A DNA stretch of 64,000 nucleotides from Planctomycetaceae bacterium (GTDB lineage: Bacteria > Planctomycetota > Planctomycetia > Planctomycetales > Planctomycetaceae). The notes beneath the pieces were generated by a model that was not told where the DNA came from, did not search any database, and saw only the letters and a list, made by a program, of their open reading frames with translations. The stretch spans positions 7,423-71,422 of the forward strand of contig JAWXBB010000103.1 of assembly GCA_034439795.1 (NCBI GenBank). Direction: 5' to 3'. Both the position numbers and the translations under genes were made by a program. Positions 2,848 to 15,763 of the stretch are shown piece after piece. How positions within the stretch are numbered: the first letter of the stretch is position 1; the number at the start of each line of letters is the position of its first letter.

Positions 2848-4077
2848 TCACCGCGCAGCGCTCGGCCCCGCGTGCTCCCCGCGCGCGAACTGACGCAGAT
2901 CCTGTCCCTTGATGACGGCGGCGATCAAGTCCGGCAGGCGGTTTGGCGTGCAGCCGAAGCACGGCATCCCCAACCCGGCCAGCTTCTCCGCCAGGCGCTC
3001 GTTGTGCGACGGCTGCCCCTGGTCCGAAATCGCCAGCAGACCGACCGCCTTCAGCCCCCCTTCGAGCAGCGATTCCATTTTCTTGACGAACCGGCTTTCG
3101 TTGGGGCTCGTGTCGTGCAGATCGGCCAGCAGGACGTACAGCGTTTTCGCCGGCGTGTGCATGAACCGCTCGCAATAGCAGGTCGCCTTCCAGTAGTCCT
3201 CGGCCCCGCCCAGTTGGATGCCGAACAGCAGGTCGACCGGATCGGAGCAGTGTTCGGTCAGGTCGACCACGTCCTCGTGATTGAACGCGACGACGTGGGT
3301 TTCCACGGAGGGGAGGCTGGCGAGAATCGCCCCCATGATGCCGCCGTAAATCAGCGACGTCGCCATCGACCCCGACTGGTCCATGGCGATGATGATGTTC
3401 CACTGGTTCTGGCGCTGTTGCCGGCCGAAGAACGAGATGCGTTCGGGGACGATCGTCCGCACTTCGAGATTGTAGTTTTTCAGATTGCGGCGGATCGTCG
3501 TGGGCCAGTCGAGATTCGGCAGGCTGCGAAACGGGCTGTGACGATTGCGATTGAGGGCCCCCCGAATCGCCTGCGCGAACTGCGACTCCAGCCGCTTGCG
3601 GACCTCCTCGACGGCCCGGCGGACGACGTCGCGCGCCGCGTCCTTGGCCTTTTCGGGCACCAGATTCTTCAGCGTCAGCACCATGCTCGCCAGATCGACG
3701 GACGGCTCGAGCTGCGCCAACAGCTCCGGCTCGAACAGCAGTTGCTTGATCCCCTTGCGTTCGATCGCGTCCTTCTGCAGCAAAACCACGATGTCCTTCG
3801 GGAAGAACTCGCGGATCTGGCCGAGCCACCGCGCGACGCGCGGAAACGTCCGCCCCTTCACCGCCCCGTGCGGACCGGTCTTGGGCGACTCCCATTCCTC
3901 GCGCGTGATTTCATCGTCGCTCGCGTTGTAAATCGCCTCCAACGCCTCGTCCATTTGCAGGTCGTCGCCGGTCAGCGCGCAGCCCCCGGAGTGATACGCC
4001 GACAGGCTCTCCTCGGATTCCTTGCCCAGAATCAGCCGCCACCGCCGCAGGGATTCGGGATCGACGGATGTGCTCAT
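2848..4077 (-). CDS. vWA domain protein, CoxE-like (YehP-like)
   Basis: 409-aa ORF. MIDAS motif IIIAMDQSGSM (DxSxS). N-terminal RRWRLILGKE helix region as seen in CoxE-type vWA proteins. Lies 21 nt downstream of the DUF5682-like gene in the same operon. Confidence 0.8.
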   Translation of the reverse strand: MSTSVDPESLRRWRLILGKESEESLSAYHSGGCALTGDDLQMDEALEAIYNASDDEITREEWESPKTGPHGAVKGRTFPRVARWLGQIREFFPKDIVVLLQKDAIERKGIKQLLFEPELLAQLEPSVDLASMVLTLKNLVPEKAKDAARDVVRRAVEEVRKRLESQFAQAIRGALNRNRHSPFRSLPNLDWPTTIRRNLKNYNLEVRTIVPERISFFGRQQRQNQWNIIIAMDQSGSMATSLIYGGIMGAILASLPSVETHVVAFNHEDVVDLTEHCSDPVDLLFGIQLGGAEDYWKATCYCERFMHTPAKTLYVLLADLHDTSPNESRFVKKMESLLEGGLKAVGLLAISDQGQPSHNERLAEKLAGLGMPCFGCTPNRLPDLIAAVIKGQDLRQFARGEHAGPSAAR

Positions 4078-4098: not shown

Positions 4099-6420
4099 CT
4101 ACAGGTCGCCAAAATCGAACTCGTTCAAGTCGGCAAGCGTCTGTTCTTCCTGCTCGGTCAGCGGTTGCTCGATCAATTCGCTGGCTGCGTCGGCGTGGAC
4201 GCCCCAGTGCTCGCCGAGATTCTCGGCGATGTGCCGCTTCTCGCGCGGACTGAAGCTGCCGAACGCGCGCCGCAGAAACACCAGCGCCCGGCGGAACTGG
4301 TCGTCGTCGAGCGCGGCGACGTAGTCGGCCAACTGCACCCACAGCGTTTGCCGGGTGAGCAATGCGTAGCGGTTGCGCCGCGATAATCCCTCGAACCAGC
4401 CGGCGCCGAGGTCGGCGGGAATGCCCGGCGACAACCGGCGGGACACCTCGCGGGCCAGCGCATCGTTGGCCATCAGGCCGCGCTCCAGCAGGATCGCGCA
4501 GGCGTAGCCGGACAGCAGCGGGTTGCGGTCATCGGCGTCGGCGAGCCGTTGCAGCCGGTCGATCCACAGCGATTCCTCGACGCGGTCCGCATACTCCAGC
4601 GCGACCTGATTGAGCTCGTCCATCGCCGCCAGGATCGCCCTGGCGGCCTCGTTGTCGCAGGTTGCCGCCCCGTGCAGCGCCAGCGAACCCTGCACGAACA
4701 GTTCCTCAACGAGCGGCAGCAGCGGGGATGGATCGAACTTGCGGACATCGCCGTAACGGATGATCTGCCCCAGCGCGCGAGCCGCATGCGCGATGGCGGT
4801 GAACTCCGACGTGCCTGCCGACAGTTCCTGCAACCGCTGTCGGGCCGCTTCCATCGACTTCATCAGGCCGCACTGGCAGGCGTCGCGGATCACGTCGGCC
4901 GCCTGCGCGATCGTCGGGCAGGCCTCGAGCGTTGTCTGGAATTGAAAGCCGACGGCCAGCTCGACGGTCTCGCCGAGCAGCACCGCCTCGATCAGTTGGA
5001 TCTCGCTCTCCGGGGACCATTGCAGATGCCACTTCTCCGCCCAGTTGGTCGATTGCTGCGCGGTCCGCTGCGCCGTCGCGAAGCCGACGCCGAGCACGCG
5101 CAGCCGATGAAAGAACGACGACCGGCTCAAATCCAAAAACGCCGCCTCCGTCGATTTCGCCTGACGGTTCTCGCGCAGGTCCAGCGTCAGTTCCTGCTTG
5201 ACGGTGGTCTTGTATTTCTCCAGCTTCAGCCGCGCGAGTTCGCGCTCGAAGTCGACCTGGATCGAAGTCCGGCTGACCCCTTTGGGCAACTCGCCGATCG
5301 CCGTGCCGACGTCGACCCGGGCCAGGGCATCCCGAACGGTCGACAATTCGCCGTGACCGACGAGCGTCACCGCGGCGTCGCGCAGATCCTTCAGCGTCGG
5401 GGCCAATCCGTCCTTGAGAGCCGACAGCGTGTTCGCGAGCCGCACCCCTTCGATCACCTCGGCCGTCGAGCGGTGGGTGCCGGATTCCCGCAGGTGCCGG
5501 ACCACGAGCGACAGGTACCGCGACGGCAACTCGGCGAGGTCGTTCCGTTCGAGCGACTCCCACAGCAACTCAAAGTACGCCGGCGCGTGATTGCCCGCCC
5601 CGTAGCCCGATTGCGAAGAGAGTTTGAAGTACGAATACGGCATCAGTGTCAACTGGCTGGCCCGCCGACGCAGCGATGCGAGTTCGTCGTCGGTCATCGG
5701 CAGGTGGTCGCCGTTCAACACCGACGCATGAAACGCGCCGACCACTGCGACGATCTTTTCGGGCTTGTATCCCGCGGCGACGGCCTCGGCGATCCGCCGC
5801 CGCATGTAGGCCTCGCGGACCAGACTCTCCGCCCGCCGGCGGACGGAGTCCCGTTCCAGATCGCGCAACGACTGTCCGAACTCGAACGCGGCGAGGCGAT
5901 AGCTGTCGTCGCTCAGGTTGTGCTCGAAGTGCCGCTCCCAGTACGTCTCGTAATCCGCTTCGCCCGCCTGTTGCGCGTACTGATCGTGAATCGACGGCCC
6001 GCGTTCGGGGGGTGTAAGATTCTCCGGCGATTCGGTCGGAGGATCGAGTTGGTTGCCGGCCTGTTCGAGCAGTTCCGCCTCGATGTCCTGCAACGCGAGG
6101 AAGATGTCGGACGGCAGGTCGATGAACATCACCCGGACGTCGTGTTCGGCCGCCCATTTGAGCGCCTGATACTCCGGGCTGTAACGCGCCAGCGGATAGA
6201 CCAGCGTCCGGACCGGCAGCGAATCGGTGTAGGCCAGAATCGCGATCGGCGGCTTCGTCCCCGGCCGCGTGATGTCCGGGATCAACGCATCCGCATCGGC
6301 GAGCCCCTCAATCAACACCAACTCCGGCCGCACGCGGTCGAGATAACGCCGCAGATGCCACGCCCCCGTCGGCGACAGATGCCGCACCCCGAAGACGTTG
6401 ATTGGTCCGGAGCCATTCAT
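4099..6420 (-). CDS. Large alpha-helical protein, DUF5682-like (YehM-like)
   Basis: ORF 4099..6504 trimmed to ATG 6420 (MNGSGPINVFGVRHLSPTGAWHL). This start forms an ATGA overlap with the stop of the upstream AAA+ gene. The approx 770-aa size and N-terminal FGVRHLSP motif recall DUF5682/YehM. Family assignment is from memory, not from a search. Confidence 0.65.
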   Translation of the reverse strand: MNGSGPINVFGVRHLSPTGAWHLRRYLDRVRPELVLIEGLADADALIPDITRPGTKPPIAILAYTDSLPVRTLVYPLARYSPEYQALKWAAEHDVRVMFIDLPSDIFLALQDIEAELLEQAGNQLDPPTESPENLTPPERGPSIHDQYAQQAGEADYETYWERHFEHNLSDDSYRLAAFEFGQSLRDLERDSVRRRAESLVREAYMRRRIAEAVAAGYKPEKIVAVVGAFHASVLNGDHLPMTDDELASLRRRASQLTLMPYSYFKLSSQSGYGAGNHAPAYFELLWESLERNDLAELPSRYLSLVVRHLRESGTHRSTAEVIEGVRLANTLSALKDGLAPTLKDLRDAAVTLVGHGELSTVRDALARVDVGTAIGELPKGVSRTSIQVDFERELARLKLEKYKTTVKQELTLDLRENRQAKSTEAAFLDLSRSSFFHRLRVLGVGFATAQRTAQQSTNWAEKWHLQWSPESEIQLIEAVLLGETVELAVGFQFQTTLEACPTIAQAADVIRDACQCGLMKSMEAARQRLQELSAGTSEFTAIAHAARALGQIIRYGDVRKFDPSPLLPLVEELFVQGSLALHGAATCDNEAARAILAAMDELNQVALEYADRVEESLWIDRLQRLADADDRNPLLSGYACAILLERGLMANDALAREVSRRLSPGIPADLGAGWFEGLSRRNRYALLTRQTLWVQLADYVAALDDDQFRRALVFLRRAFGSFSPREKRHIAENLGEHWGVHADAASELIEQPLTEQEEQTLADLNEFDFGDL

Positions 6421-7553
6421 TCGTTGTGCTCGGAACACGCCGTGAACAGCGGCCGCCATTCCGCGCCGCGCTTCTTGAGGACGTTTGACAGATACTCCTG
6501 CCACGCGACGCGGTCCTTTTCCTCGTCCTTCACGACCGACCCCTGCAGGCCGGCGGCCAGATCGTGCGGTGTCACGTCGCCGGTGCCGAAGCTCCCGGCG
6601 AGCGCCATGCTGTTGGCGAGGACGGAGATCGCCTCCGCGGTCGACAGCACGCCGCTGGGGGATTTCAGCTTGGCTTTGCCGTCGAGCGTCTGGCCGGTCC
6701 GCAGTTCGCGGAAGATCGTGACGACTTTCTCGATCGCCTCATCGGCGGGGACTTTCGCCTTCAGCTCCAGATGCAGGGCGAGTTCGCGGACCCGGCGGCG
6801 GACGATGTCGATCTCGCTTTCGATGGTCGCCGGCGTCGGCAGCACGACCACGTTGAACCGCCGCTTGAGCGCCGCCGACATGTCGTTCACCCCGCGGTCT
6901 CTGGTGTTCGCCGTGGCGATGATCGAGAACCCCTTCTGGGCGGGCACCTCCGTCAACAGCTCGGGAACGGAGAGCCGCTTCTCCGAGAGGAGTGAAATCA
7001 TCGCGTCCTGCACTTCCGACGCACACCGCGTGATTTCCTCGAACCGGGCCAGCGATCCGCTCTCCATCGCCCGGAAGATCGGACTGCGGATCAGCGCCTC
7101 GGGGCTGGGGCCGTGGGCGATCAGCATCGCGTAATTCCACGTGTAGCGAACCTGCTCTTCCGTCGTGCCGGCGGTTCCCTGCACGACTTTCGTGGAATCG
7201 CCGTTGATCGCGGCCGCGAGGTGCTCGGACAGCCACGATTTCGCGGTGCCCGGCTCGCCGATGAGCAACAGGGCACGGTCGGTGACCAGCGTCGAAACGG
7301 CGATCTCCACCAGCCGCTGATGCCCGATGTATTTGGGTGTGATGGCCGTGCCGCCGACCGAACCGCCGCAGATGTAGGTCAGCACGGCCCGGGGCGACAT
7401 CCGCCAGCCGGGGGGCTTGTCGTGTTTGTCGGCCTGAATGAGCGCTTCCAGCTCCTTCGCATAGAACACTTCCGCCGGCACGCGCAGCATCCCGCCGACA
7501 TCGTTGGTCTCGGAGGGGGCGGCATCGGCCATCGAGTCTTTCTTCTTGCTCAT
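6417..7553 (-). CDS. MoxR/AAA_5-type AAA+ ATPase (YehL-like)
   Basis: 378-aa ORF. Walker A LLLIGEPGTAKS. Walker B region SLARFEEITR. Sensor-1 IIATANTRD. Arginine region ALKRRFNVV. Confidence 0.85.
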   Translation of the reverse strand: MSKKKDSMADAAPSETNDVGGMLRVPAEVFYAKELEALIQADKHDKPPGWRMSPRAVLTYICGGSVGGTAITPKYIGHQRLVEIAVSTLVTDRALLLIGEPGTAKSWLSEHLAAAINGDSTKVVQGTAGTTEEQVRYTWNYAMLIAHGPSPEALIRSPIFRAMESGSLARFEEITRCASEVQDAMISLLSEKRLSVPELLTEVPAQKGFSIIATANTRDRGVNDMSAALKRRFNVVVLPTPATIESEIDIVRRRVRELALHLELKAKVPADEAIEKVVTIFRELRTGQTLDGKAKLKSPSGVLSTAEAISVLANSMALAGSFGTGDVTPHDLAAGLQGSVVKDEEKDRVAWQEYLSNVLKKRGAEWRPLFTACSEHNE

Positions 7554-7658
7554 GCGGTTGCATTCTGCTGAGGGAATCGGGCATTAAACGGAATGCTTAC
7601 AGCGTGCATCGCGATTCAGGATTGAGGGTGCGGAGGCATCGCCATTATTCCCGGATTG

Positions 7659-7857
7659 CAGCCGCGGAGCGGCGACAGATCGTAGCCCCAGGCGTGAGCC
7701 TGGGGAAACATCGTCGTGGTGTTGTTCAGCCCCGAAGGGGCGACAGAAGCTCGATTGCGCGACGCATCTCTGTCGCCCCTCCGGGGCTGGCGTGTTCCCC
7801 GGCGACTGGTCCCCAGGCTCACGCCTGGGGCTACGATCTGACGCCCCGCTGGGGCTG
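7659..7857. repeat. Nested-palindrome element, family C, copy 1 (inside the SWIM-HEAT-MoxR-vWA operon)
   Basis: Outer arms GCGACAGATCGTAGCCCCAGGCGTGAGCCTGGGG / CCCCAGGCTCACGCCTGGGGCTACGATCTGACGCC. Inner arms AGCCCCGAAGGGGCGACAGAA / CTGTCGCCCCTCCGGGGCT. Confidence 0.85.
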
Positions 7858-7930
7858 AAGACCAATACCGACTGAAGCTTCATGGTGGATCCCACACAGA
7901 ATCGTGACGCACACGCATACCGCTACCCCG

Positions 7931-9748
7931 TCAGACATCCGGCTTGTTCTTCAGCGCGAGCAGGGATTCCATCAGCGAATCCACCATCTTCTCGGGCAGA
8001 CTCGGCAACAACGCTTCGAGCTGCGTCGCGGAGGACTTCGGCAGGTCCGGAATCATCCGACCGATCCAGTAGCCGACCGAACCGTGATATGGCGAGGCGG
8101 CGAACTGCTTGAGCAACTCCAGCACCCCCTTCGTCGCCTCCGGGTGGCCGATGCGGACCATCGTGTCCAGCACCCGCTGCGAATTGTAATCCGCGGACTT
8201 CTTGAGACTCGCGGCGAACTGCTCCGGCAGAAACCGGTTGGTCGCCGGATGGTTCGGCCGCGCCAACTGCTGCACGAGGTCCAAATCGCCAGTCGCGACG
8301 GCGGCGTCCAGCCAGCGCGGATCGAGTTCCGGCAGGTCGCCCTGTTCGCGACCAAAATACGCGACGCGGCTGGTCCGCCAGGCGAGACTCGGATCGGCGA
8401 CCTGGTCCGCCAGTCCGTGACGGATCGCCTCCAGCCGGCCGAATGCGGTCGCGGTCTTCTTCGATTTCTTGTCGGGCTGGTCGAGCAGGCTCGGCGAAAA
8501 CAGGTCGTACAGCCGGCCCGGCGACACCGTGCGGCGGGCCGCGGCAAACGCGCACGACAGCATCGGGCCGGTGAGCGACTCGTGCGCCGCGATCAGCTTC
8601 TCGCGCGTCTTGGGCGAACCGTTCGCCATCAGATAGGCGACCAGCTCGTTCACGTCGGCGCCGCTCGGTTCGGACTTGATCGCCGCCAGATCGCTCGCGC
8701 GATCGAAGCCCTTCAGCAGCCAGGCTTCGGTCCCCGCATCGTCGCGGCCGACGAGGCCCCCCAGCCAGTGTTGCAGCCGCGTAACCGCGGTGCCTTGCTC
8801 CGTCTTGTCCTTCAGCTTGAGCAGTTTGGCGAGTTGCCGGTCGGCTTCAGTCAACAGGAATTTCAGCAGGGCCGGATTGCGGCTCGTCCGCAGCCGGTCC
8901 ACGATCAAGGCCAGATCCGCACCGCCCGCCGCCTTCTGCACGGCTTCCACGGCGACGGCGGCGTCGAGCTTGGTCAGCGCTCCCAATGCGGCGGCGCGGA
9001 CGTCCTTGGCTTTCGCTTTCGATTGCTCCAAGAGATAGGCGAGATCTTCGTCCGAGTCTCCCAGACACTCGATGGCGACGACCTTGAGTTCCTTCGATCC
9101 GTCGTCGAGCGTCTGCGCAATCAGCGCGCGCGTCCCCTGCGGATCGAGCTGATGCATGAGCCGCAAACGCAGCAGATGACCGGCCTTCCCGTTCTGATCA
9201 AAACTGCGGCGCAGCTCGGGCAGGATCGCTTTGCCGTACAACGGCAGCACTCGCTCCACGACGAAGTCGCCGATTTCCGGATACGGATCGTCGAGCGCCT
9301 CGAGCGCGGGCTTGACCAGCCGCAGGTCGGCGAACGCGCCGCGCTCAAAGGCGTCGCGAATCAACTCTAGTCGTCCGGAACCAGTCGTCGACAGCGCTTC
9401 GAGCAGCGGTTTCAGCAATCGGGCGCTGGCCTGCGTCTGCCGGGCGCCCAGGTCGGTCGTTTCGATCGTCAGCAATTCGCCCGCGAGGCCGGTCTCCCCC
9501 TGCGTATAGAGGATGGCGTTGACCAGCCCCGCCAGTTCCAGCAGCGCGACCGGGGCCGTCTTCTCATTGCTGTCCACAACGGCCTGCGCGGACTGCGCCA
9601 CTTTTGCGAATACTGGAGCCTTCTCGCCGGCCTTTTCCAACGGCGCGATCAGTTTCTTCAGACGAAAATCGCCCCCCGACACCCCGCTGCCGGCAATCGC
9701 CAGTCGCCGCAGTTCGTCGGACACCTGAGTGAGGATCGCGATGCTCAT
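7931..9748 (-). CDS. HEAT/ARM-like repeat protein (possible counterpart of the DUF4132/YehI-type partner)
   Basis: ORF 7931..9907 trimmed to ATG 9748 (MSIAILTQVSDELRRL), 12 nt after the stop of the upstream gene. All-helical repeats such as VVAIECLGDSDEDLAYLLE and DVRAAALGALTKLD resemble HEAT units. The DUF4132 link is unverified. Confidence 0.65.
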   Translation of the reverse strand: MSIAILTQVSDELRRLAIAGSGVSGGDFRLKKLIAPLEKAGEKAPVFAKVAQSAQAVVDSNEKTAPVALLELAGLVNAILYTQGETGLAGELLTIETTDLGARQTQASARLLKPLLEALSTTGSGRLELIRDAFERGAFADLRLVKPALEALDDPYPEIGDFVVERVLPLYGKAILPELRRSFDQNGKAGHLLRLRLMHQLDPQGTRALIAQTLDDGSKELKVVAIECLGDSDEDLAYLLEQSKAKAKDVRAAALGALTKLDAAVAVEAVQKAAGGADLALIVDRLRTSRNPALLKFLLTEADRQLAKLLKLKDKTEQGTAVTRLQHWLGGLVGRDDAGTEAWLLKGFDRASDLAAIKSEPSGADVNELVAYLMANGSPKTREKLIAAHESLTGPMLSCAFAAARRTVSPGRLYDLFSPSLLDQPDKKSKKTATAFGRLEAIRHGLADQVADPSLAWRTSRVAYFGREQGDLPELDPRWLDAAVATGDLDLVQQLARPNHPATNRFLPEQFAASLKKSADYNSQRVLDTMVRIGHPEATKGVLELLKQFAASPYHGSVGYWIGRMIPDLPKSSATQLEALLPSLPEKMVDSLMESLLALKNKPDV

Positions 9749-9759
9749 GGGGAGATTTC

Positions 9760-10815
9760 CTACATCGTCAGCCGCACCACCGCCGACTCTGTCACGAGGC
9801 TCAGCGGCTTGATCTGCAACTTGCGCGTGTCCAGATCGTGGCGAAACCGCGCGACCAGCGTCTGGTTCTCGAACAGGCCGGGAGACAACAGCGGCAACAG
9901 ATGACAACTGGCCGGCTCATCGGTCATGCCGCGGTCGGTCATTGTCAGCCGGTTTCCCGTCGCGTCCTCGACGACGAACGTGCCGTCGATCTGGCCGATG
10001 CGTCGAAAGCTCAGCGCATAGATCGGTTGCTTGTCCGACAACGGTCCCTTGAGGTTGGTTTTGACCTCTTTTACCACCGCGGCGAAATCGCTGTGAGCGT
10101 GCGTGCGGGCGCGCTGCAGATCGGATGGCTCCAGCGGACGCGGCGTCATCGCCTCCCACCGGACCCTGGGGTTGACGTCGCCGGGATAGACGCACAGTTC
10201 CGCCACCGTCGCGACCTGGAAGAAGCTGTCGTCGCTTTTGATGTACTTCGCCGCCTTGTACGGCCGGAAGTTCTGCGAAAGCTGGATGCGGCCCGTGTTC
10301 AGATTCAGCCAGACGCCGGTGTCGACGTATTCCTGCCGGGCGATGTCGTTGTGCGAATTGAACGCGAGCTGGATCAGTTCGACGTCGGTCTGCACGAGAC
10401 CCACCGCTTTCAACTCGGAGAGTTGCCACGCATGACCGAGCCACGCGGCGATGGCGGTGTCGGTTTCCGGTTTGAGTTCGGGGTCGTCGCCGCGCCGTTG
10501 CAGATAGGCCCGGCCCTGTTTCACGAGCGAATGCAGCCGGCCGAGCTGATCGAGCGCCTCACTGTAGACCGCCTCGCGCTGGCTCGCCGGCACGGAGGAG
10601 TCGTAGGCGCTGTCCTCATTGGCGAACAACTTCGTGAACCGATGCAACGTCGCCTGCGCGCCAGGCAGGTAGGCGTTGCCGAGTTGCTTGGCCTTCTCCT
10701 CGATTTCCTTCGCGGTTTTGGCGTTCATGTTCCCGATGCCGATGCGCACCAGGTCGAGCGTCAACTTCTCCAGGAGGTCGATCCCTTTCCAGCTGCGCCC
10801 GAATTTTTTTGGCAA
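9760..10815 (-). CDS. C-terminal two-thirds of a SWIM zinc-finger protein (YehQ-like); frame-shifted relative to the N-terminal part
   Basis: 351-aa ORF that begins only at a TTG inside an A7 run. The protein-like sequence begins right at KKFGRSWKGIDLLEKLTLDLV. Deleting one A from the run joins it in frame to ORF 10616..11218. Confidence 0.6.
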   Translation of the reverse strand: MPKKFGRSWKGIDLLEKLTLDLVRIGIGNMNAKTAKEIEEKAKQLGNAYLPGAQATLHRFTKLFANEDSAYDSSVPASQREAVYSEALDQLGRLHSLVKQGRAYLQRRGDDPELKPETDTAIAAWLGHAWQLSELKAVGLVQTDVELIQLAFNSHNDIARQEYVDTGVWLNLNTGRIQLSQNFRPYKAAKYIKSDDSFFQVATVAELCVYPGDVNPRVRWEAMTPRPLEPSDLQRARTHAHSDFAAVVKEVKTNLKGPLSDKQPIYALSFRRIGQIDGTFVVEDATGNRLTMTDRGMTDEPASCHLLPLLSPGLFENQTLVARFRHDLDTRKLQIKPLSLVTESAVVRLTM

Positions 10816-11218
10816 GCGCCGCTTTATCGACGGTCTTCGGCTTGGCCGCGTCCTCCTTTTTCTTCTCCGTTCGTTCGGACAGCTTCTCGCGTTTCTCCGC
10901 CAAATCCGCAGGGACGTCGGCCACCTGGAACGACGGCCGCTTCTGCACGAAGGCGTACATCAGCCCCAGGCAGTGCTTGCACGGAAACTGCCGGCTCGGA
11001 CAGGTGCAGCGATGCGTCGGCTGATCCGCGCGGGCGAAATCGCACGAGCAGCGATACGGCTCCTGGCCCGACCCCTGACATTCGCCGAACAGCAATGCTT
11101 CGCCGTCGTCGGTGTGCAGCTTGAGGAACTTCCCCTTCACGACCAGGCCGCGACCATTCTTGATCGCGTCGGCGTTCGGCGCGGAGGCGTCCACGTACGC
11201 TTCGTCGATGGAGATCAT
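10616..11218 (-). CDS. N-terminal SWIM zinc-finger part of the same gene (true coding portion approx 10805..11218)
   Basis: SWIM CxCxnCxH signature: CSCDF...HRCTCPSRQFPCKHCLGLMYAF. After ...KAALAKK the translation turns into Arg/His/Gly-rich junk (IRAQLERDRPPGEVDARPGAHRHREHERQNREG). This indicates the reading frame is lost at the A7 run (plus-strand T7 at 10804..10810). Confidence 0.6.
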   Translation of the reverse strand: MISIDEAYVDASAPNADAIKNGRGLVVKGKFLKLHTDDGEALLFGECQGSGQEPYRCSCDFARADQPTHRCTCPSRQFPCKHCLGLMYAFVQKRPSFQVADVPADLAEKREKLSERTEKKKEDAAKPKTVDKAALAKKIRAQLERDRPPGEVDARPGAHRHREHERQNREGNRGEGQATRQRLPAWRAGDVASVHEVVRQ

Positions 11219-11378
11219 GACAGCCCAGGATTCAAGACCGGTGCGACGCGCCTGCGAGGAAGCCGAAAGGACACGTGATTGTTGGTCAATCGGACACAGA
11301 TTGCAAGAACCTGCGTTGATGCCGCAGCCCGGTCGGAGAGTCTCGCGTTTACGTTTCGACGGTGGCTGGCTTCAATGT

Positions 11379-11415
11379 CCGGTCCCCTCGCCCCCGTCTT
11401 CGGGGGAGAGGGGGC
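11379..11415 (-). repeat. REP hairpin unit (hairpin core only)
   Basis: CCGGTCCCCTCGCCCCCGTCTTCGGGGGAGAGGGGGCC in the divergent intergenic region between the SWIM gene and the kinase. Confidence 0.8.
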
Positions 11416-11577
11416 CAGAGGGGAATCCACCCCGAATCGAGACGCACACTCGCGAGCCACCTGCAAACCCCAAACGACCTCGCGACAGGCGTCCGCGGCG
11501 GTTAGACTTTCGACCATCCAGCAGTCGTTCCGCCGTGTGCGGCGGCTGTATCCCCCGTTGACGTTTCGAAGCTCGCC

Positions 11578-14319
11578 ATGCCGCTGACGCTCGAACAGTT
11601 CGCGAGGCAACTGACCGACAGCGGCCTGTTCGCGGCCGACGAGGTCGGCGCGCTCCGGGCGGCGTCCCGTGCCGCCGATGCCGAGCACTTCGCCCGCGAG
11701 CTCGTGAAACAGAAGCGGCTGACGGCGTTCCAGGCCCAGCAGGTCTACGCGGGCAAGGCGAAGTCGCTGGTGCTGGGCAACTACGTCATCCTCGACAAGC
11801 TCGGCCAGGGGGGCATGGGGATGGTGCTCAAGGCCGAGCACCGGCGGATGAAGCGGATCGTCGCCCTGAAGGTGCTGTCCCCCAACGTCACCAAGACGAA
11901 GGACGTCGTCGCCCGGTTTCATCGCGAAGTCCAGGCCGCGGCCAAACTCGAACACCCGAACATCGTGTCGGCCTACGACGCCGACGAAGCCAACGGCACG
12001 CACTTCTTCGTGATGCAGTACGTCGCGGGGGAGGATCTCTCCTCGCTGGTCAAAACGAAGGGGCCGCTGCCGGTCGAGTCGGCGGTGAGCTGCGTCCTGC
12101 AGGCCGCACGCGGGCTGGAGTTCGCCCACAGGCAGGGGGTGATTCATCGCGACATCAAGCCGGCGAACCTGTTGCTGGACGGCAAGGGGGTGGTGAAGAT
12201 CCTCGACATGGGCCTGGCGCGCATCGAGGGGGACACCGGCGCGCTGGCCGAGTTGACCAACACCGGCGCGGTGATGGGAACCGTCGACTACATGGCCCCC
12301 GAACAGGCCCGCAACACCAAGACGGCCGACGCCCGCAGCGACATCTATTCCCTCGGCATCTCGCTGTGGTATCTGCTCGTCGCCAGGCCGGCGTACAACG
12401 GCCAGACGCTGACCGAACGGTTGCTGGCCCATCAGAGCGATCCGATTCCGTCGCTGTGCGCCGCGCGAAGCGACGTGCCCGCCGCGTTGGACGCCGTCTT
12501 TCAGAAACTCGTCGCAAAGCGGCCGGCGGACCGGTATCAGACGATGACGGCGGTCATCGACGCACTGGACGGCGCCTTGCACGGGGACGTCGTAGCCGCT
12601 GTGCCGAGTCTGGCCGTACAGCCCTCGGACGACAGCAAGTTCAACGAATTCCTGGCGGGGCTGGCAAACACCGACGCCGGTTCGCGCGGGACCGCCCCGC
12701 ACAAGACCGCGGTGGCGACGGGCATTGTCACCGACGTCACCGAAGAGTTTCAGCACACGCAGTCGTCCACGGCCCCCGAAGCCGCGACCGATCCCCTGGG
12801 ACTGACGCCGATCGCGCGCCGGCGCACTGCCGCCCGCCGGCCTGGGCCGCGGCACGAATGGTGGGCCGACCGGCGCGTGCAAATCGGCGGCGCTGCGGTC
12901 GTGCTTGTGGCCTCTTTGGCGCTGATGATTGCCTCGGGCAAGCGGGAGGCCGCCGCACCCCGAACGGCGGCGTTGCCGGCCGGATCGCAATACGCCCTCG
13001 AGTTCGATGGAACCGCGGCGCACGTCCAGATCCCCACATTGAAGCTCGCCGGCGGGCCGTTCACGTCGGAAGCCTGGATCGAGCCGGGACCGCTCAGCAT
13101 GGGGTGTTATCTCGGCGCTTACGACCAGGGCCATAGCGCATCGCTGTGGGGCAGTTCCGGCATCAATGGCTTCACGGCCACCACACCCGCCGGCACGCGC
13201 GTCGGCAAGCAGTCCGACCGTCTGGACCTGGGACGCTGGATGCATGTCGCCGGCGTGTTCGATGGACGAGCGGCGGCGTACTTTGTGGATGGCAAGCTCA
13301 TCCACCAATCGACCGGTTTCTCGGAGCATGAGCCGGCCAATCTCCAGGGGGCGTGGTTGGGAGGCCTTCCTGATATCGGAATGTGGCGCGGCCGTCTGCG
13401 GGCCGTGCGCGTCTCGCAATCGGTGCGCTATTCGGCCGATTTTACGCCCCCCCAGCAGTTCACGGACGACGATCAGACCTTGGCGCTCTATCTCATGGAT
13501 GAAGGTCAAGGCACAACGCTCAATGATCGATCCGGAAACGAGCATCACGGCACGATCGTCCAGGCCGAATGGGTGATTGACCGGTCCGGCGGGCCGGTCA
13601 CAACGCCCGCGTCCGACCCCGAATCCTCCGATCGTCCGAGTCCGCAGGAATCGTCGCCAGCGCTGCCACCGGCCGACGATTATGCCCTGCAGTTCGACGG
13701 CGACGACATCGTGGTTTCCCCCTTTGAGTTCGACTTCGCGCAGCCGTTCACCTTCGAAGCGACCGCCCGGCTCGACGCACTCCCCGTCAAGAATCAGATG
13801 AGTTGCCTGGCTGTGCAGGGGGGTGGAGGCCAGGTCATCCTGCGCGCCTTGCCGTCCGGCGAGTGGAACATCGTCGGGACCGGCGGGATCTGGTATGGCA
13901 ATGGTCCGATCCGCGTCGGCGAACAGACACATCTCGCCGTCGTTTATACGGGAGAGAAGTTCCTGCTGTTCCTCGACGGCCAGTTGATCTCCCCTCGAAA
14001 GTCGGAACCCTCGCGGGAAAGCCGCGTCAACACCCCGCGAATCATGACGCTGGCTCTCGGTGGGGGGGGATTCGCCGGCCTGATCGATGAAGTCCGCATC
14101 TCGCGCGTCGCGCGCTACGACCGCGATTTCACACCGGCAAAGCGCTTCAATCCCGATCCGCAAACGTTCCTCTTGTATCATTTGGACGAAGGCCAGGGAG
14201 ACATCGTCAAGGACTCTTCGGGCAACGATCATCACGGCAAAATCGTCGGCGCGACGTGGGTGTCCCCGGACGACACAGCGCCCGCAACACGATCTACATC
14301 GGGCCAGCCACTTCCCTGA
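11578..14319 (+). CDS. Hanks-type Ser/Thr protein kinase with C-terminal tandem LamG/concanavalin-A-like domains
   Basis: Kinase motifs: GQGGMGMV, VALKVL, HRDIKPANLL, DMGLA, APE. One hydrophobic segment (VQIGGAAVVLVASLALMIA) is followed by two jelly-roll-like repeats (WMHVAGVFDGRAAAYFVDGKLI; THLAVVYTGEKFLLFLDGQLI; VRISRVARY). Confidence 0.85.
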   Translation: MPLTLEQFARQLTDSGLFAADEVGALRAASRAADAEHFARELVKQKRLTAFQAQQVYAGKAKSLVLGNYVILDKLGQGGMGMVLKAEHRRMKRIVALKVLSPNVTKTKDVVARFHREVQAAAKLEHPNIVSAYDADEANGTHFFVMQYVAGEDLSSLVKTKGPLPVESAVSCVLQAARGLEFAHRQGVIHRDIKPANLLLDGKGVVKILDMGLARIEGDTGALAELTNTGAVMGTVDYMAPEQARNTKTADARSDIYSLGISLWYLLVARPAYNGQTLTERLLAHQSDPIPSLCAARSDVPAALDAVFQKLVAKRPADRYQTMTAVIDALDGALHGDVVAAVPSLAVQPSDDSKFNEFLAGLANTDAGSRGTAPHKTAVATGIVTDVTEEFQHTQSSTAPEAATDPLGLTPIARRRTAARRPGPRHEWWADRRVQIGGAAVVLVASLALMIASGKREAAAPRTAALPAGSQYALEFDGTAAHVQIPTLKLAGGPFTSEAWIEPGPLSMGCYLGAYDQGHSASLWGSSGINGFTATTPAGTRVGKQSDRLDLGRWMHVAGVFDGRAAAYFVDGKLIHQSTGFSEHEPANLQGAWLGGLPDIGMWRGRLRAVRVSQSVRYSADFTPPQQFTDDDQTLALYLMDEGQGTTLNDRSGNEHHGTIVQAEWVIDRSGGPVTTPASDPESSDRPSPQESSPALPPADDYALQFDGDDIVVSPFEFDFAQPFTFEATARLDALPVKNQMSCLAVQGGGGQVILRALPSGEWNIVGTGGIWYGNGPIRVGEQTHLAVVYTGEKFLLFLDGQLISPRKSEPSRESRVNTPRIMTLALGGGGFAGLIDEVRISRVARYDRDFTPAKRFNPDPQTFLLYHLDEGQGDIVKDSSGNDHHGKIVGATWVSPDDTAPATRSTSGQPLP

Positions 14320-15763
14320 TCGCGTCGAGCAACCCGCGCAGATCGTCAATCGTCGTCAGCGGGTTGATGATCGTCACCCGCAGCGCACCGATGGCGTCGA
14401 ACTTGGTCGCAGTGATGTAGTACGTTCCCGATTCGATCAGCGCGCGGCGCAGCTGCAACTGACGCAATCCGACCTCTTCCTCGGACAACGCGGCCCACTC
14501 CGGCGGGCGGTAACGGAACACGACGATATTGCACTGCGGCTCGTGCAGCGCGATAAAGTCGGGCTGTTGCCGCAGCTCTGCGTGGAACTGTTGCGACAAT
14601 GCGAACGTGTCCTCCACCAGCCGGCGGAACAGGTCGGGGCCGAACAGGCTCCACACGCCCCACAGGCCGAAGCCGGCGGCCCGCTTGGTGCATTCGACCG
14701 TTTGCAGGCCGACGTCGTAGTCCGCCATGCCGGGGGCGGTCGGGTCGAAGAGATACGGCGCATCCTGTCGAAACGCCTCGAACCGATGGGCGGGATTCTT
14801 GTAGAACACGAAGGCGCACAGCGCGGGAACGAACAGCATCTTGTGGGCGTCCCACACCACGCTGTCGGCCCGGGCGATGCCGTCCACGAGCGATCGCAGT
14901 TGCGGACTGAAGCACGCCGCGCCGCCGTGGGCCGCGTCGACGTGCAGCCAGACGCCGAACTCGGCGCACAAATCGGCGATCGCGGGCAACGGATCGAACG
15001 CCCCGATCGGCGTCGTGCAGCAGCTCGCGCACACGGCGATGATCGTTCGTCCCTCGGCGCGCGCCCGTTCCAACTCGGTCCGCAGCGCCGCGGGGGACAT
15101 CCGCCGGCGATCGTCGAGGCCGACCTTCACCACCTGCCGCGTCCCCAGTCCCAACATCCCCGCCGCCCGGGCGATGGAGTAATGCGCGTCGGCCTGCGTG
15201 AGGATCACCGGCCGCGCGGTTGGTTCGTCGACGCCGTGTTCCCAGGCGTCTTCCAATGCGACATTGCGGGCCGTCAGCAGGGCGGTGAAATTCGCCAGCG
15301 AGCCGCCGTGCGTGATGAAGCCCGCGAACGTCCCGGCGGGAAATCCGAGCTGCTCCCCCAACGCCTCGACCAGCGCCCGTTCCACCGCGGTCGCCCACGG
15401 CCCCATCTCGAACACGGCCATCGGCTGATTGGTGACGCTCCCCACGGCGTCAAACAGCCCCGCGAGGGGCACGGGCGCGGGCACCTGATGCCCGATGTAC
15501 CGCGGATGATGCAGATTCTGCGCATGGGCCAGCATGGTCGCGATCATCGCCGACCAGCGCTGCGGCAACGTCTCGACGGATTCCGGTGCTGCGGTCTGCA
15601 TCCAGCCTCGCGCCGCCGCGATCAAGCGCTCCGGATCACCCACGGGGGAGACCCGCCCCTCGCGCGCATGCTGCTGGGTGAGATACGCGCCGAGCTGCGC
15701 ACAGACTTCCTGTCCGCACGCGGCGAACAACTCCGGGGAATACGCCGCCGTCTTGAGGTCCAT
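14294..15763 (-). CDS. PLP-dependent group II amino-acid decarboxylase
   Basis: 489-aa ORF. Motif SVVWDAHKMLFVP contains the PLP lysine in the S-x-H-K context. Also GGSLANFTALLTAR. The 3' end overlaps the convergent kinase gene by 26 nt. Confidence 0.8.
   Translation of the reverse strand: MDLKTAAYSPELFAACGQEVCAQLGAYLTQQHAREGRVSPVGDPERLIAAARGWMQTAAPESVETLPQRWSAMIATMLAHAQNLHHPRYIGHQVPAPVPLAGLFDAVGSVTNQPMAVFEMGPWATAVERALVEALGEQLGFPAGTFAGFITHGGSLANFTALLTARNVALEDAWEHGVDEPTARPVILTQADAHYSIARAAGMLGLGTRQVVKVGLDDRRRMSPAALRTELERARAEGRTIIAVCASCCTTPIGAFDPLPAIADLCAEFGVWLHVDAAHGGAACFSPQLRSLVDGIARADSVVWDAHKMLFVPALCAFVFYKNPAHRFEAFRQDAPYLFDPTAPGMADYDVGLQTVECTKRAAGFGLWGVWSLFGPDLFRRLVEDTFALSQQFHAELRQQPDFIALHEPQCNIVVFRYRPPEWAALSEEEVGLRQLQLRRALIESGTYYITATKFDAIGALRVTIINPLTTIDDLRGLLDAIREVAGPM

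Follow-up and report, generated by a model that had tools for sequence, protein, structure and literature searches.

A surplus base, almost certainly outside the neighbouring A7 run, interrupts the SWIM gene of a yehLMPQ-type operon in a planctomycete draft genome

Results

A broken SWIM gene heads a five-gene operon

The 64,000-nt stretch of Planctomycetaceae DNA analysed here (hereafter the window) carries on its minus strand five co-oriented genes, which encode a SWIM-domain protein, a HEAT-like repeat protein, a MoxR ATPase of the AAA_5 type, a DUF5682 protein and a CoxE-type VWA protein (Table 1). The order SWIM-HEAT-AAA-DUF5682-VWA is kept in the three relatives examined (G002, G026 and G037), which range from the same genus to the same class. 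The HEAT-like protein is collinear over its full length with the orthologues in these three genomes, the AAA+ ATPase gene is full length against its relatives, and the DUF5682 start overlaps the AAA+ stop (ATGA), with a 4-nt overlap in the gene call on Logan contig L095. That the SWIM gene comes first in the operon, as the original prediction had it, is borne out: the long minus-strand ORF upstream of it (11215..14349, 1,044 codons), which we considered as a further operon gene and rejected, has no Pfam hit and is the shadow of a plus-strand gene for a Ser/Thr protein kinase with Laminin_G_3 (concanavalin-like) domains. This kinase gene (11578..14319) is divergent from the operon, with a 360-nt intergenic region.

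In BLASTP comparisons with the proteins of E. coli K-12, the AAA_5 ATPase matched YehL (42% identity, E 5e-87), the DUF5682 protein matched YehM over its full length (24% identity, E 3e-24) and the VWA protein matched YehP (33% identity, E 8e-66), while in the SWIM protein the SWIM finger alone aligned, weakly, with YehQ (E 0.074). The operon thus contains adjacent, co-oriented AAA_5, DUF5682 and CoxE-type VWA genes homologous to those for YehL, YehM and YehP, and belongs to the yehLMPQ type. For the SWIM protein itself there is no NCBIfam model, PADLOC gave only a weak SWIM-level hit, and literature searches on DUF5682, yehQ and the combination of MoxR, vWA and SWIM turned up nothing useful on its function. 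The spacer between the HEAT and AAA+ genes (7554-7930) measures 377 nt here, against only about 25-45 nt in G002 and G026; in G037 it is about 240 nt long. The difference suggests that this lineage has acquired an insertion within the operon, and the spacer holds a palindromic repeat element according to the original prediction.

Table 1. Features of the SWIM gene and its operon in the window, and genes with a Pfam domain across a frame break on other contigs of the same draft
Feature	Coordinates	Strand	Basis
SWIM gene, native N-terminal part, codons 1-144 (MISIDEAY...ALAKKIRAQLE)	10787..11218	-	translation
A7 run (plus-strand T7): Lys137-Lys138 and first base of Ile139, in frame	10804..10810	-	alignment
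Frameshift site GAAA between CTG (Leu143) and GGG (Gly145), one-base surplus	10786..10789	-	codon alignment
First ORF, out-of-frame tail (RDRPPGEVDARPGAHRH...VVRQ, 56 codons)	10616..10786	-	translation
SWIM gene, native C-terminal part, +1 frame, codons 145-485 (GIDLLEKLTLDLVRIG...VVRLTM) and stop	9760..10785	-	translation
Second operon gene, HEAT-like repeat protein, 605 aa, intact	7931..9748	-	weak HEAT_2 hit
Third operon gene, YehL-type MoxR AAA+ ATPase (AAA_5), 378 aa, intact	6417..7553	-	PF07728, E 2e-37
Fourth operon gene, DUF5682 (YehM-like), intact	4099..6420	-	PF18934, E 4e-149
Fifth operon gene, CoxE-type VWA (YehP-like), 409 aa, intact	2848..4077	-	PF05762, E 3e-32
ParB_N-N6_N4 methylase fusion, broken	C46 ~2292		Pfam domain across break
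GlgE maltosyltransferase, broken	C128 ~20213		Pfam domain across break
Sulfatase, broken	C369 ~4456		Pfam domain across break
Pnkp RNA-repair enzyme (metallophosphatase), broken	C489 ~6543		Pfam domain across break
Type I restriction HsdR (SWI2/SNF2 ATPase), broken	C591 ~26571		Pfam domain across break

Two ORFs are the pieces of a single SWIM gene

The minus-strand ORFs 10616..11218 and 9760..10815, which lie exactly where the original prediction had placed them, are two pieces of a single SWIM-domain gene, as the ORF list, the translations and the relatives all indicate. The product of the first ORF reads MISIDEAY...CTCPSRQFPCKH...AALAKKIRAQLE and then passes into an Arg/His/Gly-rich tail, much as had been described. 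Its native part is collinear with the orthologues up to residue 144 and contains a SWIM zinc finger (PF04434, E 2e-4, above the Pfam cut-off), whose CxC...CxH motif occupies residues ~57-82, together with a charged helical linker. The codon-usage score of frame 0 drops out at about 10787; the out-of-frame tail that follows opens on the rare Arg codon AGG and terminates at TGA (10616-10618). The second ORF is protein-like from GIDLLEKLTLDLVRIG onward, and this C-terminal part is, across its own full length, 58-77% identical to the orthologues.

Instead of one uninterrupted ORF, the window holds a 200-codon and a 351-codon ORF that result from one surplus base at 10786-10789. Deleting one base within the ORF overlap gives, as had been claimed, a single ORF of 485 codons, and the read-through protein (...ALAKKIRAQLEGIDLLEK..., 485 aa, 144 + 341) has the modal length of the family. 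It aligns from residue 1 to residue 485 with 79 relatives at 53-80% identity, collinear with the family throughout. When the C-terminal piece was searched against 41 related genomes, five yielded an orthologue, two of them belonging to the same genus and three to the same class; all five orthologues are open frames of 495-513 codons that include the SWIM domain. Similarly, the 120 best of 1,833 database hits are single proteins of about 485 aa, most of them of exactly that length. The orthologues are thus one gene, rather than naturally two as the original prediction had allowed for. The 200-aa piece is present in NCBI nr as a protein in its own right; the annotation of this locus would be improved by joining both coding sequences under one SWIM gene and marking it either as a frameshifted pseudogene or as a possible error.

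The surplus base almost certainly lies downstream of the A7 run

To locate the break we drew on 85 loci, comprising the 5 orthologous genomes and 80 metagenome loci, of which 79 cover the junction. All 79 read the junction in one frame, and a frame break at this position occurs in none. In the codon-by-codon alignment, the five orthologues have AAR AAR ATY (K K I) followed by x-A-Q-L-x-G-[IL]-D-L-L-E, and the coding strand of the window reads AAA AAA ATT CGG GCG CAG CTG GAA A GGG ATC GAC CTC CTG GAG. Where the window has GAAA (TTTC at 10786..10789 of the plus strand), the relatives have a single codon, which specifies Glu in 33 and Asp in 24 of the 79; seven of them have GAA GGG at codons 144-145. 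The surrounding columns are strongly conserved (K137, K138 and Q142 in 79/79, G145 in 78/79 and I139 in 75/79). On this alignment the lesion almost certainly sits at 10786-10789.

The original prediction had instead put the frame break in the A7 run, with the second ORF becoming protein-like exactly at KKFGRSWKG and with ALAKKFGR as the junction peptide. The alignment contradicts all three statements. Across the 79 loci AAA AAA ATT is read as K-K-I in the original frame, which continues past the run through five further matching codons (R A Q L E) and so gives KKIRAQLE; the proposed junction, ALAKKFGRSWKG, would displace the conserved I139 and Q142. The read-through junction is instead ...KKIRAQLE-GIDLLEK..., spanned by the peptide IRAQLEGIDLLEK, and the surplus base lies about 15-20 nt beyond the run. 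An A7 run at the K-K-I codons, with the same AAAAAAAT, is also found in 3/79 relatives whose gene is intact. Because intact relatives share it at the same codons, the run is, as judged from the alignment, a harmless synonymous variant uninvolved in the lesion. The locus is a cautionary case: a homopolymer beside a frame break need not be the break, and here it was the alignment of orthologues that relocated the lesion.

The break falls within a predicted helix

We used AlphaFold2 to model P0003, an intact orthologue that is 82% identical, from an alignment of 60 sequences (mean pLDDT 82.7). The predicted structure comprises the SWIM domain (residues 1-100), a helix (104-125), a low-confidence linker (121-131) and a second helix (132-159), followed by a helical middle region and a beta-rich C-terminal half. 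We considered whether the break falls at a domain boundary and rejected this, as position 144/145 lies within helix 132-159 of the model.

A Foldseek search with the model gave no match at E 0.001 or below, and no relative of the SWIM protein with a solved structure was found by sequence. Residues ~275-480 of the model (corresponding to 9760-10380 of the window) weakly matched, in Foldseek, nucleic-acid-binding proteins with tandem OB folds (RPA70, the AIM2 HIN domain, Teb1 and EF-P/eIF5A), with probabilities up to 0.96 and low TM-scores. These predicted similarities hint at a possible nucleic-acid-binding role for the SWIM subunit.

Frame breaks recur in the draft genome and in the family

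The genome is a 7.43-Mb draft in 717 contigs with an N50 of 13.8 kb. A codon-usage scan for adjacent coding segments on the same strand that switch frame with a long ORF overlap gave 41 candidates among 5,942 coding segments and recovered the SWIM case. Seven of the twenty strongest candidates were scanned against Pfam after the translations of their two ORF segments had been joined, and in five of the seven a single Pfam domain spans the break (Table 1). Several of these five genes belong to defence or mobile elements, and both real pseudogenes and draft errors are possible explanations for them. The sequence contexts of the other frame breaks share no common motif. The genome thus carries several ordinary indel lesions, of which the SWIM break is one.

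Two further sites outside the window involve repeats. On contig C84 (~5560-5600, minus strand) the frame of a gene for a DNA methylase (N6_N4_Mtase, E 5e-43) shifts exactly at a G9 homopolymer (GTCAAGGGGGGGGGCTGGAG). Such a pattern is classic for restriction-modification methylases under phase variation, but a read error in the homopolymer would look alike; the Pfam domain stops before the break, and continuity across it is unproven. On contig C171 (14840-14863, plus strand) a polysaccharide deacetylase gene shifts frame at a (CA)n dinucleotide repeat (CATCAACACACACACACACACAACTAC); this may be a contingency locus of the simple-sequence kind, or the repeat length may be in error. Within the SWIM family, frameshifts occur at about residue 235 in L075, twice in L082 and at residue 285 in G022 (C49; L007-L009), and L011 (Ga0163144_10067678), from the same metagenome as L010, has an in-frame stop. 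These breaks are sporadic, and no site is hit twice.

The surplus base is present in two assemblies, and the read-through protein is undecayed

Contig Ga0163144_10175273 (3,070 nt) of JGI metagenome 3300015360 is 100% identical to 8587..11656 of the window, GAAAGGG included, and encodes the exact 200-aa product with its nonsense tail. Since this contig and the window's own contig (77,569 nt) differ in length, two different assemblies agree on the surplus base, which makes an assembler-specific error unlikely; both assemblies may draw on reads of one project. Logan contigs of run SRR6448212, retrieved by exact-protein look-up of the neighbouring HEAT and AAA+ proteins, carry the same species and end at position 10258, ~530 nt short of the junction. 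Look-ups of the same kind with a guessed partial product and with the kinase returned no matches. Metagenome contigs were also scanned with a DNA pattern that accepted both alleles at the break and A-runs of 5-9, likewise with no match, probably because the scanned set excluded records from this genome or close to it. Among the database relatives, the best match is 82% identical; with same-genome records excluded and no second independent genome of the species in the set, the search yielded no intact conspecific allele.

The read-through protein retains 91 of the 92 invariant and 97 of the 101 near-invariant columns of the family, and 21 of 60 relatives deviate from these columns as often as it does. 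The four downstream genes of the operon align full length with their orthologues. With the family columns kept and the downstream genes intact, the lesion is either very recent or not real.

Discussion

The probable explanation, in our view, is a recent and genuine one-base insertion that has inactivated the SWIM gene. A single surplus nucleotide in CTG-GAAA-GGG (10786-10789) would shift the frame after codon 144, so that the first product would be a protein of 200 aa, made up of the SWIM domain and linker and then 56 nonsense residues, and the 341-codon C-terminal part would be left with no proven start of its own. The lesion would thus be an evolutionarily recent insertion in the sampled population, and the gene a fresh pseudogene or loss-of-function allele. 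From the sequence comparisons we infer that the surplus base is most likely real in the DNA, rather than an error of reads or consensus, and that function is most likely abolished. The main competing account, that the gene is intact (GAA GGG) in the organism and the extra A confined to the assembled consensus, is unlikely, though far from negligible. It accords well with a read-through protein that is wholly family-like and free of any other defect and with intact downstream genes, given that a complete absence of decay is also how an artefact would look. It accords, too, with the nature of the sequence: a fragmented, metagenome-type draft of 717 contigs belongs to a class with occasional indel errors, this one has at least five other domain-splitting indels, and other metagenome contigs of the family break sporadically elsewhere (L075, L082 and G022). 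However, the identical base appears in the separately assembled JGI contig of different length, its context is a 3-base run and not an indel-prone homopolymer, and a multi-read consensus should purge random indels. If the insertion is real, nature has supplied a mutant in the leading gene of an uncharacterised yehLMPQ-type system, although, because the organism is uncultured, such a mutant is of little practical use.

Of the explanations offered in the original prediction, a recent inactivating mutation and a sequencing or assembly error are still live, whereas those tied to the A7 run (run-length heterogeneity, phase variation, slippage and +1 frameshifting at the run) fail because the lesion lies outside the homopolymer. 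Slippage, phase variation, programmed frameshifting and a functional split gene, even when pooled, are improbable; homopolymer phase variation, transcriptional slippage and programmed +1 frameshifting taken as a group are unsupported and together have at most a very small chance of being correct. We think it highly improbable that the length of the A7 run switches the gene or that AAAAAAA causes a one-base slip of RNA polymerase or tRNA-Lys, and equally so that such a slip leakily rescues the break by yielding a full-length ...ALAKKFGRSWKGIDLLEK... product. The run, correctly reported as a plus-strand T7 at its position, does precede the lesion by 15 nt and falls within the stretch that is open in both frames, and a +1 slip or the deletion of one A there would restore the downstream frame with six residues altered. 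It is also uncommon in this DNA of 64% G+C, being one of two A/T runs of at least 7 nt in 64 kb, and, with AAA making up 26% of Lys codons, about 7% of K-K-I sites would be expected to read A7. Yet the run is in frame and encodes K137-K138-I139, hence is not the lesion, its occurrence in intact relatives marks it as a neutral synonymous state, and the rescued product would swap the near-invariant I139 and the invariant Q142 within a confidently predicted helix. The break of a phase-variable gene would be expected inside a simple-sequence tract; here it is found in GAAAGGG, whose A3/G3 composition is not slippage-prone. The run is, moreover, short: efficient transcriptional slippage requires runs of about 9 or more, the A9 of Thermus dnaX and the poly(A) rescue in endosymbionts reportedly being examples. 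Slimmer still is the chance of a real frameshift for which A7 acts as a leaky suppressor, allowing low-level full-length protein with IRAQLE changed to FGRSWK; were that so, the first gene of a MoxR/VWA machine would be throttled rather than dead. The least probable of these readings is programmed +1 frameshifting at GAA-AGG-G, in which the rare, 'hungry' Arg codon AGG would stall the ribosome and the next tRNA would read GGG. With a frequency of 2.1 per thousand (2.8% of Arg codons), AGG ranks sixth among the rarest codons of this genome, and it is the first zero-frame codon past the shift point, a superficial likeness to rare-codon-dependent sites of the Ty1/Ty3 type, but rare codons are expected at the start of any out-of-frame sequence. 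In addition, tRNA-Glu re-pairs poorly from GAA to AAA, there is neither a Shine-Dalgarno-like stimulator upstream of the site nor a stop codon at it, and the genome's other breaks have no motif in common with each other. A programmed event would call for a conserved shift site and a two-frame layout, and the absence of any frame break here from the 79 relatives, two of them of the same genus, is evidence against one. Finally, the SWIM and C-terminal domains could function as two cooperating polypeptides, the second starting at TTG 10815 or TTG 10629. Both pieces are still open and conserved, and the JGI gene caller proposes a 289-aa second product from TTG 10629, overlapping the stop of the first ORF. 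Nevertheless this arrangement is very doubtful: none of the 79 relatives is split here, the 289-aa product would lack residues 145-206, and the first ORF is burdened with a nonsense tail of 56 residues. Further evidence against it comes from the model, where the break lies inside helix 132-159 (pLDDT 85-91) and outside the flexible linker 121-131.

Comparison with known systems

The SWIM frame break is an ordinary frameshift. As in frameshifted pseudogenes, a conserved gene is split by the gain or loss of one base in sequence that is not repetitive, the relatives are all intact and no recoding signal is conserved; the difference is that here the lesion is too recent to show any secondary decay, and the base is seen in assembled sequence. 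Rescue by slippage at poly(A) tracts, which Tamas and colleagues reportedly described in 2008 for frameshifted genes of endosymbionts, resembles the present case in that an A-run lies in the overlap of two frames and a one-base slip would restore the frame. Here, however, the run is 7 nt long, in frame, off the lesion and present in intact relatives, and the comparison with 79 relatives gave no evidence of slippage at it. Programmed +1 frameshifting of the prfB and Ty types shares with this locus the need for a +1 shift and a rare AGG in the zero-frame A site, but the site here is conserved in 0/79 relatives, is without a stop codon or Shine-Dalgarno stimulator and would allow only poor P-site re-pairing.

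The operon itself has its counterpart in yehL-yehM-yehP-yehQ of E. coli, with which it shares an AAA_5 ATPase, a DUF5682 protein, a CoxE-type VWA protein and a SWIM-finger protein. YehL represents a subfamily of MoxR AAA+ ATPases that have a VWA partner. In contrast to YehQ (614 aa), the SWIM protein here has 485 aa and is alike at the SWIM finger only; its gene is encoded first, whereas yehQ comes last; and the additional partner is a 605-aa HEAT-like protein here and the giant DUF4132 protein YehI there. The same system in E. coli K-12 also offers an example of an ordinary frameshifted pseudogene, as yehH/molR, upstream of yehL and next to yehLMPQ, is an annotated pseudogene.
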